Position numbers: made by a program. DNA of 22,731 nucleotides from a virus (taxonomy: Duplodnaviria > Heunggongvirae > Uroviricota > Caudoviricetes), in the IMG/VR virus record IMGVR_UViG_2526164602_000021. One strand, 5' to 3'. Numbering within the stretch: the stretch's first letter is position 1; the number at the start of each line of letters is the position of its first letter. This document shows, piece by piece, positions 15,001-18,000 of the stretch.

Positions 15001-18000
15001 GATGGTCCGGATATGTGTCTGCACCTGACAGAGGTCATCCAGATCATCGTCCCGTCGTACCATATCCCTGGCAGGGTTGAAGGCGTTAGCCGCCACCTCC
15101 ACGGTCGGGGCCAGAATGGTGTAGCCCGCCGCCTGCCGCCAGTTCAGTAACAGCGCCGTCATCATGATCCCCGCAGCCAGCGTGGACTTCGAGTTTTTCT
15201 TGGGGATAAGGATAAACACTTCCTTGATATGGCGAACACCGGTCTGCGCATCGTAGGAGCCAAACAGGGCCGCCACCAGGTCAAACACCCACGGTGCACA
15301 GGACTCCCCGAATGTCGGGCTACCCGGTGCATCCACAATTCGCAGTTGTTTAAAAATCGCCAGTGCATGTGCAGCCTGGTCCGGATAAATCGGAGCCGGA
15401 ATAATCGACAGCCCCTTTTTCAGGCGCTCTGCCCAGTCCGGGCAGGCCGTGCTCCACACAGGTATCATCCGTTGCCCTCATTATCATTATTCACCACCAG
15501 GCGGGGTGGTGGTGGCACCGCAAAACGGTTAGCCGCTTTTTTCGCCGCGTCACCTTTTGCCGATTTTTTACCGGCATCCCCTTTTTTGTGGTGCGTGAAC
15601 TGCGCCAGCTTATAAGCCGCATCCAGCGCCAGCCTGGGGTCGGTATTAATGTTCTCCACCAGAAGACGCCCCATCGCTTTCACCGGATCGGGAAGACCAT
15701 CCTCCATATATTCAATACCAGGAGACATCACCGCGGACGGTGGCATCTCCGGATTGTTTTCGTCCGGCTGTGGTATTGCAGCCGCCTCACGGCGACGGGG
15801 TTTATCCTCCTGCTCTGATTTTTTCTGCCGGTAAACAGGAACCTCATCCACCTCCACCGTCTCGCATTGTTTACGGGCTATAAACGCAAGCACCTCCGGA
15901 TCTTTTGCCAGCTGCGAGCCTTTAACCCTGGCGGTCTTCGCCGAATAACCGGCGGCAATGGCTGACGCTGTTTTGTTTTTCCCGGACATGAGCGCCAGCG
16001 CAAATTTTCGTTTTTGCGTTGTCAGCACAGCCTCCTCCCGGGTCCAGAACGCACTCAGCCGGGTATGGTTCAGCCCATTTTTCCCGGCGTCTCATGCCGC
16101 AAATGTTAACTGCTGCCTGGTTAACATTTGATGAAAAAGCCAGTTAACATTTTTTTCGCACAACAAACTGAATAATAAAGATAAAAACCGCAAAAATGCC
16201 CGGACAGCCAGTTAACATGTTAACTGCCCTGAAACGGGAATTTTTTCTCTGCGTGAGAGGGGGCGCGGTGTCCGGAGCGATCGTTTTTTACGCCGGATGA
16301 TACCCCCCCGCTCGGGTTACAGTCCGATGATGTCGTCCGCTCTGCCACTACCTCCGGACACCTCCGGCAGCGTCGGGTCCGGCATACCACCCGCCGCTTC
16401 ACGAGCAGACTTTTGTCGATGGCATTCGGTACAGAGCGTCCAGAGATTCGTCTCCTCATTACCACCACCGAACTGAAGTGCAATTCGGTGATCGAGTTCA
16501 CTGTCACAGAGGTCAACCACACGACCACAGAGACAGCACTGCCCGGCATCCCTGAGCCAGATATGACGCTTGAGGGAAACACGTGCACTGCCACTGACAC
16601 GACGCTGTTCACCCTTCAGAATATTCACCCGTCGGGTATTCAGTGTTTTGATTCTGCTCTGGAGTGTACGAAGCTCAGCCATGTAAAATCCCCGTCATAT
16701 GGCAATCAGTAAAGGAAATAAATATGTCATCGAAAAACCGGACCCGCAGAACCACAACCCGCAATATCCGTTTCCCCAATCACATGATTGAACAGATCAA
16801 TATCGCCCTTGAACATAAAGGTTCCGGTAACTTTTCAGCGTGGGTTATTGAAGCCTGCAGGAGAAGGCTGGCAACAGATGCAACGCATCTGCGTCCGGCC
16901 AGCATGACAAATAACGAGAAATGAACGTTCGGTTACAGGAGCAGGTACCCACTGTCCTCCAACAATATTTCATCTTCATACCCGGCGGAACAAGACTTAC
17001 CCAGCCGGAATGTACAGAATAACAACAGAGTGATAATTAATTTCTGATGAAATAATCAGGGTGCAGAAGGACTAAAGATAAACGTTTTCTTCACGCCTTT
17101 ACGCGGCCTGTCCTTCTCAAATCGCCATTTTGCCATCGCCTTTACAACCTGCTCATCAAACAGATGGTGCGGCTCTGAACGGATAAACTCAATTCGGGTG
17201 ACAGTACCATCAGCACCAATATCAAACTTCACATCAACCCGTCCCTTTATATAATTTGCCGCTGCATAGGCCGGATATTGTGGTAATGCCTTAACCAACT
17301 GTCGGGGCATATCTGTTTTATGTTGCGTACAGCCCATAACCAGAGAAGACAACAAAATAATTAACGGAAGATTTCTTTTCATTTTCATTCCCGGCACAGA
17401 TAAGAATAAGTCTTATTCTAACAATGCCACCCTGTCGGCCATCAATCCTCTGCTTAATGGCAACGACAATTATCCGACTTAAATCACAAATCAGACACAT
17501 GACATAACAGGTCTTGCGAGGTAACACATCGTCCGGTTTCTTCCACCATCGCACCGAACCAGCGACCATGAGGGGACAACGCCGCGCTCCGTTAACGCGG
17601 TAAACCCCGGTGCGTATCGTTTTTGATTCTCCCCGCACACTCGCGCAGAGGAGTCTCCCTGTCGGGCTGCGGTCTCTGTTAATGAGGGAATACAGCGACG
17701 ATACGGCGCATCAGCAAAACTTAGTTCAGGCACTGAGTGCGGATATAGTCCTGTGCCCCTTCCAGCTGCTTCTGCATTGTCATCAACCGTTCTCTGAGGA
17801 TGAAATAATCCCGTTCAGCGGTGTCTGCCAGTCGGGGGACGGTTGCATTATCCACGCCGGAGGTGCCGGTGGCTTCACGCACGGTACCGGAGCAGGTGGC
17901 GTTGATCCGCAGGCGCTTACGACCAGCGGCAACATCAGCACGCAGAGTTTCATTTTCAGCTCTCGCATCGGCTAATTCCCTCGAGTATTTTGCATCGAGC

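Follow-up and report, generated by a model that had tools for sequence, protein, structure and literature searches.

Several described systems bear on small phage lipoproteins that act on TonB-dependent transport. When the E. coli TonB fragments 33-239, 103-239 and 122-239 are exported to the periplasm they inhibit the TonB system, an effect that was attributed to blocked contacts between TonB and its transporters (cited and reproduced in bioRxiv 10.1101/2020.01.05.895219). The Llp protein of phage T5 is a lipoprotein of the inner leaflet of the outer membrane that binds the periplasmic face of FhuA and blocks FhuA-dependent phages, ferrichrome and colicin M; the Cor proteins are said to be structurally similar to Llp (bioRxiv 10.64898/2026.03.26.714494). 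Bor/Iss of lambda is a prophage-expressed lipoprotein moron encoded between lysis and packaging genes, and is tied to serum resistance, not to TonB. Here we describe a gene that may be placed as a variant among the phage outer-membrane lipoprotein morons aimed at TonB-dependent transport. It lies on the minus strand of the virus record IMGVR_UViG_2526164602_000021 (Caudoviricetes), a stretch of 22,731 nucleotides that is called the window below, and its coding sequence (17056-17382; 108 amino acids plus stop) encodes a putative lipoprotein precursor with a TonB C-terminal (TonB_C) domain. The gene itself has appeared in annotations from the EDL933 genome onwards, and since 2001 as a 'partial' or 'fragment' TonB; it is curated in phage 21 and was listed as an expressed moron in 2023. 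Full-text literature searches turned up no functional study of the family, only the moron list of strain LF82, the precedent of the periplasmic TonB fragments and the work on Llp and Cor. Based on homology, geometry and the published periplasmic fragments, we tentatively propose, at somewhat less than an even chance, that the product is an outer-membrane-tethered decoy for TonB boxes encoded by a lysogenic-conversion (moron) gene.

The TonB C-terminal domain is encoded at 17071-17307 (minus strand) and is equivalent to residues 153-231 of E. coli TonB. It was identified with Pfam, NCBIfam, a phmmer search of PDB sequences, and an AlphaFold2 (AF2) model compared by Foldseek. An earlier reading of the window, made from the sequence only (the sequence-only reading), had proposed a near-complete domain, to be checked against TonB_C profiles (hidden Markov models) and by structure prediction, and both checks bear it out: the domain is essentially complete. 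The match to PF03544 has E=5.5e-15 (56 bits, against a cutoff of 24.6), TIGR01352 is matched with 56.5 bits (cutoff 27.1) over model positions 1-75 of 76, and residues 28-106 align without a gap to E. coli TonB 153-231 (phmmer, E=3e-16). Identity to the E. coli C-terminal domain is 36-41%. The AF2 model, built on five family members, has a predicted local distance difference test (pLDDT) value above 90 across the domain, with strands at residues 49-57, 63-72 and 96-105 and helices at 40-44 and 78-86. In Foldseek it matches 1u07_A, 2gsk_B and 2grx_C with template modelling (TM) scores of 0.88-0.91 and a root-mean-square deviation of 1.1 A; these entries are free TonB (1U07), the BtuB complex (2GSK) and the FhuA complex (2GRX) (PDB). 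A search of BFVD gave no significant structural neighbour. The aligned region takes in beta3, the strand to which the TonB box is paired in 2GSK and 2GRX. The YP motif (TonB Y163 and P164) is kept, residues Y38, P39, F55, F77, W88 and F105 are invariant in the family alignment, and the TonB aromatics F180, F202, W213 and F230 are conserved, with Phe (F90) in place of Y215. The phage protein therefore shares the fold, the YP motif and the aromatic core of the E. coli domain (~150-239), and differs from it in the absence of the last few residues and in the replacement of Q160, R158 and R166. It is not a full-length TonB: the N-terminal membrane helix and the Pro-rich linker are absent, only ~8-10 residues separate the lipoprotein signal from the domain, and the NCBIfam TonB equivalog models score it at 49-73 bits against cutoffs of 265-448.

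The open reading frame (ORF) ends with TGA at 17056 and has three candidate starts, GTG at 17397, ATG at 17388 (110 aa) and ATG at 17382 (108 aa). The last is likely the start in use, because ATA replaces the first ATG in 14 related loci, RefSeq annotates the protein with 108 aa, and the Shine-Dalgarno-like GGGAA (17388-17392, minus strand) lies 5 nt 5' of ATG 17382. The precursor begins with a signal peptide with lipobox (MKRNLPLIILLSSLVMG followed by the lipobox Cys; 17329-17382, minus strand), made up of a basic n-region (MKRN), a hydrophobic core (LPLIILLSSL) and the lipobox VMG-C (L-V-M-G-C), which agrees with the pattern [LVI][ASTVIM][GAS]C. The Cys codon occupies 17331-17329 and residue +2 is Thr, giving a predicted mature start of CTQH. 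All homologues examined (phage, Klebsiella-phage and chromosomal) have the lipobox Cys, while the remaining signal peptide varies. Residue +2 is Ser, Ala or Thr in the relatives, and no family member has Asp there. By the E. coli +2 rule, we infer lipidation of Cys18 and sorting to the outer membrane. The 110-aa lipoprotein of the sequence-only reading therefore stands as a lipoprotein precursor, with a length that is more likely 108 aa.

The gene is widely distributed. Megablast placed the window's clade in 417 of 5426 complete E. coli genomes, in each case on the chromosome; the clade is also present in seven phage records (Lys8385Vzw, two records of JLK-2012 and four Stx1a-converting phages). 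At least 1000 contigs carry the exact 108-aa protein, recorded as 'TonB family protein'. A sister clade with 71% protein identity occurs in 1225 of the same 5426 genomes, and the TonB_C lipoprotein family as a whole in about one in four complete E. coli genomes. Members of the sister clade include the classical lambdoid phage 21, where the gene lies between bor and cosQ and bears the curated name 'TonB C-terminal domain protein'; ev017, where it is annotated as 'partial tonB-like membrane protein encoded within prophage CP-933N'; the prophage Perceval of strain LF82, where it is called 'TonB fragment'; and the strains ATCC 11775 (type strain), Nissle 1917 and CFT073. Outside E. coli, a Klebsiella phage encodes a lipoprotein homologue of 40% identity in the corresponding slot, which follows the lysis genes and precedes HNH/terS, and Klebsiella and Raoultella species have chromosomal, non-prophage homologues that are 44-51% identical. 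Like the phage protein, the latter are ~110 aa long and combine a lipobox with one TonB_C domain. They differ in being chromosomal and syntenic (lacI, a 136-aa gene and a Rick_17kDa lipoprotein gene precede the TonB_C gene in six genomes) and in having a perfect Fur box. An exhaustive profile-free search added further single-domain relatives of 107-152 aa, eleven of them with lipoboxes. The phage gene probably has its source, or else a sibling, in the chromosomal Klebsiella/Raoultella lipoproteins. The ratio of nonsynonymous to synonymous substitution rates (dN/dS) is 0.12 between the two prophage clades, at a dS of ~1.5 that is saturated, and 0.17 against an 89%-identical variant. The TonB_C gene is under purifying selection and, as the signal-peptide Cys is also invariant, the 'fragment' annotations are misleading.

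Two further observations concern the sister clade. Its phage-21-like prophages (phage 21, Nissle 1917, CFT073) carry bor/iss, the TonB_C lipoprotein gene and sitABCD as joint cargo, and an nmpC-like porin gene is also present in the icd prophages of Nissle 1917 and CFT073 and in Perceval of LF82. In addition, several sister-clade variants switch after about residue 88-97 to a common alternative C-terminal reading (…SGSEETIYLYAVTSLMLPGREGLEAGE…). These variants (P0010, P0012, P0013, P0018, P0019 and P0021) come mostly from metagenome or read-archive assemblies, P0010 being from an NCBI genome, and they suggest recurrent frameshifts or small indels near the 'EKNRPCQG' codons that could be assembly errors, decay or a variable tract.

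In the proposed decoy model the protein would be exported and then lipid-modified at Cys18, and a tether of ~8-10 residues would keep the complete TonB C-terminal domain right under the barrels of TonB-dependent transporters, the place at which TonB is docked in the crystal complexes. This sharpens the sequence-only reading, in which the protein could engage TonB boxes from the periplasmic side and was a candidate for superinfection exclusion, colicin protection or altered iron uptake; engagement of TonB boxes, exclusion and colicin protection remain the preferred hypothesis. Since it has no transmembrane helix and no Pro-rich linker, it would have no connection to ExbB/ExbD and would transmit no energy. 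Its beta3 strand would bind TonB-box strands by beta-augmentation, with FhuA, BtuB, FepA, Cir and similar transporters as targets, and/or the N-termini of group B colicins during their threading through them, and it would so compete with the cell's real TonB. As the whole TonB-box-binding domain is kept but could not be energised, TonB boxes should be occupied unproductively. TonB-dependent events are predicted to be lost in part or selectively; this would include the irreversible adsorption of T1/phi80-type phages and the entry of their DNA as well as killing by group B colicins and microcins, and would come at some cost to siderophore uptake. Such a protein would be uncoupled from ExbB/ExbD, unlike E. 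coli TonB, and anchored through its predicted lipid from the outer-membrane side. It would inhibit as the engineered periplasmic fragments do, being itself natural and phage-borne. With T5 Llp and with Cor of phi80/N15/HK022-type phages it would form a set of small phage-encoded lipoproteins of the superinfection-exclusion type, its own exclusion role being a proposal by analogy. The fold is unrelated to theirs, and searches of Pfam, PHROG, PDB and BFVD gave no Llp- or Cor-like match. Llp acts allosterically on FhuA alone, whereas a TonB domain would address the TonB box that transporters have in common, with a potentially broad effect.

Several points weigh against this proposal. TonB residues that have been implicated in contacting the TonB box are lost: Q160 corresponds to Leu here and to Tyr in the sister clade, R158 is replaced by Lys or Thr, and R166 by a Tyr that is invariant in the family alignment. 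The Klebsiella/Raoultella relatives with Fur boxes would be induced when iron uptake is needed, which is a poor fit with a general TonB poison. The carriers Nissle 1917, CFT073 and LF82, with constitutive expression of the gene, rely heavily on TonB-dependent siderophore uptake, and the sister-clade prophages also carry sitABCD, an iron/manganese import operon. The protein has no match in the PADLOC defence library. Given the siderophore reliance of the carriers, the lost contact residues, the Fur-induced relatives and sitABCD, any inhibition must be mild or selective, and selectivity could mean that the colicin or phage TonB boxes, or a subset of transporters, are affected. A wider generalisation, in which a widespread prophage decoy captures the TonB boxes of transporters and of arriving group B colicins or phage proteins, acts at the shared energising step and not on one receptor, and so protects lysogens broadly against TonB-dependent phages and bacteriocins, and in which the Fur-controlled Klebsiella/Raoultella relatives are native 'TonB-box guards' that come on as iron starvation exposes the receptors, is possible and somewhat more doubtful than the decoy itself.

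A comparison of the upstream regions of ~160 loci located an extended -10-like element, TGtTAGAAT, at 17415-17423 (minus strand). Both prophage clades share ATTGT[T/C]AGAATAAGAC, which contains TGnTAGAAT, directly upstream of the gene, within upstream sequence that has otherwise diverged. A consensus promoter scan gave no hit on the minus strand, as TTGATG, the sole -35-like hexamer, stands at a distance of 19 nt. Transcription of the sister gene has been reported for Perceval, where LF82_160 ('TonB fragment') is among the LF82 morons, with expression 8-fold over the prophage background in lysogeny broth (Misson et al., PLoS Pathog 2023; PMC9928086). Its level, as log2 fragments per kilobase per million (fpkm), is 5.0-6.6 in every condition, including inside macrophages, against 2.3-3.7 for the Rz, endolysin and terminase genes. 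The neighbouring bor is strongly induced in Dulbecco's modified Eagle medium (DMEM) and in macrophages whereas LF82_160 is not (log2 fold change 0.26), and four cargo genes (nmpC, the TonB_C gene and sitABD) score as lysogen-expressed morons (PMC9928086). The sister-clade gene, which lacks the palindrome discussed below, is thus transcribed autonomously and roughly constitutively in the lysogen. The sequence-only reading had given the window's gene a promoter of its own and possible expression in the lysogen; this is borne out for the sister gene, and the shared TGnTAGAAT motif, as the one link, suggests the same for the window's clade. There, a weak extended -10 promoter would drive expression in the lysogen, and read-through from late transcription would add to it. 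As the gene runs in the direction of the late genes and no terminator separates it from Rz, Q-antiterminated late transcription should continue into it.

The gene resides in a minus-strand lambdoid late operon with the order P21-type holin, DUF1327, lysozyme, Ant/KilAC antirepressor gene, Rz/Rz1 and TonB_C gene, followed by a convergent DUF3950 (YlcI/YnfO) gene (16724-16924, plus strand) and then HNH, terS, terL and a capsid-protease fusion. Rz (17724-18182) and Rz1 (17786-17968), both on the minus strand upstream of the TonB_C gene, match PF03245 and PF06085, respectively, and are a genuine spanin pair. The phage vB_EcoS-569R3 has the same backbone and lacks the cassette. Alignment with it defines a 604-bp insertion at 16926-17529 (minus strand) that comprises the promoter-like region, the gene and a 3' flank. 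Imperfect 8-bp direct repeats mark the junctions, with the left copy, ACCGGACG, at 17530-17537 and the right copy, ACCGAACG, at 16926-16933 (both minus strand), the latter beginning 2 bp past the DUF3950 stop codon. In the composition profile, GC content is 40-47% across the cassette (16900-17500) and 54-58% on both sides. No intrinsic-terminator-like site was found on either strand of 16600-18400. By its presence/absence junction and low GC, the cassette is a moron-type insertion without a terminator of its own. The slot between spanins and packaging genes that was described for this gene is confirmed by Rz/Rz1 upstream and HNH/terS/terL downstream. The comparison with the bor slot of lambda holds in part: both are morons between lysis and packaging genes, but bor runs against the late operon and the TonB_C gene with it, and the proteins are unrelated. 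In the sister clade the gene directly follows bor/iss on a lambda-type backbone, ahead of Nu1/A (the two are neighbours in phage 21, Perceval, Nissle 1917 and CFT073), so the cassette adds to bor rather than replacing it.

Three explanations other than the decoy have to be considered for the protein. It might be an iron-related accessory factor with a positive or neutral role in iron-limited envelopes, the phage copy being cargo for iron-poor hosts; such a factor could hold unloaded transporters primed, guard TonB boxes against foreign ligands alone, or bind peptidoglycan or another periplasmic partner. We consider this unlikely, even though the chromosomal relatives speak for a link to iron. 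Upstream regions were compared with the classical 19-mer Fur box, GATAATGATAATCATTATC, and with its 7-1-7 form, TGATAATnATTATCA, overlapping a promoter. In the six syntenic Klebsiella/Raoultella genes (L002, L005-L009), TATTGA[T/G]AATTATTATCAATA lies 4-16 nt before the start codon between diverging flanks, matching TGATAATnATTATCA exactly (with one mismatch in the loci that have the G variant) and the classical box at 15-16 of 19 positions; the gene has the look of an uncharacterised constituent of the iron-starvation regulon. The window, equally far from the start, has a weak Fur-box-like 19-mer, GATAAGAATAAGTCTTATT (17399-17417, plus strand), which matches the consensus at 13 of 19 positions by consensus scoring (local null P ~0.045, with five sites scoring at least 13 in the window). 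This site has at least five mismatches to the 7-1-7 form in every register and was not found by a 7-1-7 scan allowing up to 3 mismatches. The Klebsiella phage copy reaches 12 of 19 and the sister clade 11 of 19, far upstream. Tables of Fur chromatin immunoprecipitation sequencing (ChIP-seq) in CFT073, which are silent on the window's clade, have no peak at 1,423,2xx-1,423,7xx, the site of the sister-clade gene; the peak at c1601 is the sitA promoter, and a weak one at c1442 falls in another prophage without a TonB_C gene (PMC7157518). The most economical reading of these comparisons is that the native setting of the family would be the iron-starvation regulon, and that the phage copies have lost Fur control (sister clade) or retain a degenerate remnant that may or may not bind Fur (window's clade). 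The pairing of the sister gene with sitABCD and iss in phage 21 and the prophages Perceval and those of Nissle 1917 and CFT073, and the occurrence of the window's clade in Stx1a phages, would suit an iron-related cargo as well. There is, however, no known mechanism by which a TonB domain without an energy connection would promote transport, the sister clade has neither a Fur-like site nor a Fur peak in the CFT073 tables, and LF82 expression is unchanged in DMEM or macrophages.

A role as a late-phase accessory of lysis or particle release, for example by altering links between outer membrane and peptidoglycan or by preventing loss of progeny on debris, is suggested by the position of the gene, which is co-directional with the late operon and right after Rz/Rz1 with no predicted terminator between, and by the Klebsiella phage homologue in the same slot after the lysis genes. 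The protein also matches PHROG 1267, labelled 'Rz-like spanin' (lysis category), over its full length (E=1.9e-42). This label seems to reflect gene position and will propagate wrong annotations: we rejected an Rz-like spanin identity on the domain content, a globular TonB_C domain, and on the genuine Rz/Rz1 pair upstream. The protein has no terminal membrane helix, coiled coil or Pro-rich Rz1-like segment, the window has a complete spanin pair of its own, and closely related phages lack the cassette entirely. Moreover, the sister gene is transcribed in the uninduced lysogen, where lysis genes are silent, and in the window the TonB_C gene is intact while the endolysin gene is frameshifted, all of which makes this role very unlikely. 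That the gene is a non-functional captured fragment of host tonB is scarcely credible. The 'partial' and 'fragment' annotations in ev017/CP-933N and Perceval and the frameshifted C-termini of some metagenomic variants would fit a dead gene, but dN/dS of 0.12-0.17 across saturated synonymous divergence, the acquisition of a lipoprotein signal peptide with an invariant Cys, the same architecture in chromosomes and in the Klebsiella phage, the occurrence of the family in about one of every four complete E. coli genomes and the transcription of the sister gene in LF82 all speak against it.

If the decoy reading is true, about a quarter of E. coli strains would carry a built-in modulator of TonB-dependent traffic, among them lysogens of Stx1 phages, the probiotic Nissle 1917, the uropathogen CFT073 and the Crohn's-associated LF82. 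Their susceptibility to T1/phi80-like phages would be affected, which bears on phage therapy and on fermentation contamination, as would that to group B colicins and microcins, which bears on gut competition. The uptake of siderophore-antibiotic conjugates (cefiderocol-type) and iron acquisition in infection would likewise be affected, and the engineered dominant-negative TonB fragments would have a natural counterpart. A clear phenotype would close a visible gap for a long-annotated and commonly carried gene.

The regulation proposed for the window's gene involves a 17-bp perfect palindrome, AGAATAAGTCTTATTCT, at 17403-17419, with arms of 8 nt (AGAATAAG and CTTATTCT) around a single central T. 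As had been described, it overlaps a -10-like element, here TAGAAT (17420-17415), which is preceded by TG and thus forms an extended -10; the palindrome also covers the predicted transcription start. The sequence-only reading had taken it for a dedicated operator. As an operator for conditional expression in the window's clade, it would be bound by a host repressor at the dyad or by Fur at the overlapping 13/19 site, and we regard this as improbable. The geometry over TAGAAT and the predicted start is right, and a true Fur box occupies that position in the ancestral-type relatives. Counting perfect palindromes with arms of at least 8 nt and spacers of 0-3 nt, 1.4 are expected per window by chance and the window has two; for the local 600 bp, the chance of finding one is 0.036. 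It is kept in ~80 loci of the window's clade with only two single-base variants; these loci are 97-100% identical, so its retention carries little information. In the sister clade the left arm is present alone (ATTGTCAGAATAAGAC) and the right arm is missing, as if ~13 nt had been inserted or lost, yet the sister gene is expressed. The mismatches to the 7-1-7 consensus noted above argue against Fur. In 50 kb of the complete phage Lys8385Vzw there is no second copy within 3 mismatches, and we know of no E. coli regulator with this palindrome as its consensus. An operator for the phage's own repressor was rejected, as the site in Lys8385Vzw is single and the immunity-region dyads of that phage are unrelated to it. 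Dedicated repression is therefore not borne out: the palindrome is within chance expectation for the window, absent from a sister clade that is still expressed, and present in a single copy in Lys8385Vzw.

The surroundings of the cassette have several features of their own. The ~190 bp at 17531-17720, just downstream of Rz, are non-coding-looking backbone at the end of which the cassette is inserted in both clades. This stretch is 96-97% conserved in ~98 lambdoid/Stx phage records with or without the cassette, and ~85% conserved in the lambda-type phages of the sister clade; annotations place differing small hypothetical ORFs on it. An RNA element upstream of the gene was considered and rejected: Rfam gave no match at gathering thresholds for the window as a whole, nor for 16800-17900 with E values of up to 1 admitted. 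A structured RNA at 17525-17725 was likewise rejected, as folding is no better than that of shuffles (z=0.39) and this backbone is common to cassette-less phages. The lysis cassette includes the Ant/KilAC antirepressor-type gene (18420-19112, minus strand; 231 aa), flanked by the lysozyme gene on one side and by Rz/Rz1 on the other; in Lys8385Vzw this gene occupies the same place, and a Rha-family gene additionally lies between Rz and the TonB_C gene. The endolysin gene (933W/Stx-type R; 19389-19918, minus strand), which encodes 177 aa in its intact form, is split into two frames by a 1-nt deletion near 19816 (GAAAAGGAAGG to GAAAAGG-AGG), and 51 of 73 related loci have the intact gene. The prophage may be lysis-defective, or the deletion may be a sequencing error; if it is not, an intact TonB_C gene beside a frameshifted endolysin fits cargo kept in a decaying prophage. 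The only other long perfect palindrome of the window is the 18-bp CAGTTAACATGTTAACTG at 16209-16226, in a low-GC gap between the HNH endonuclease gene and terS, and it may relate to cos or packaging. Finally, the Stx2 phage 1720a-02 (KF030445.1) has at the same insertion hotspot (2475-2489) the sequence TGATAATGGTTATCA, with one mismatch to the Fur 7-1-7 consensus (chance expectation 0.01 sites per locus); it lies inside an annotated 49-aa hypothetical ORF before the terminase genes.

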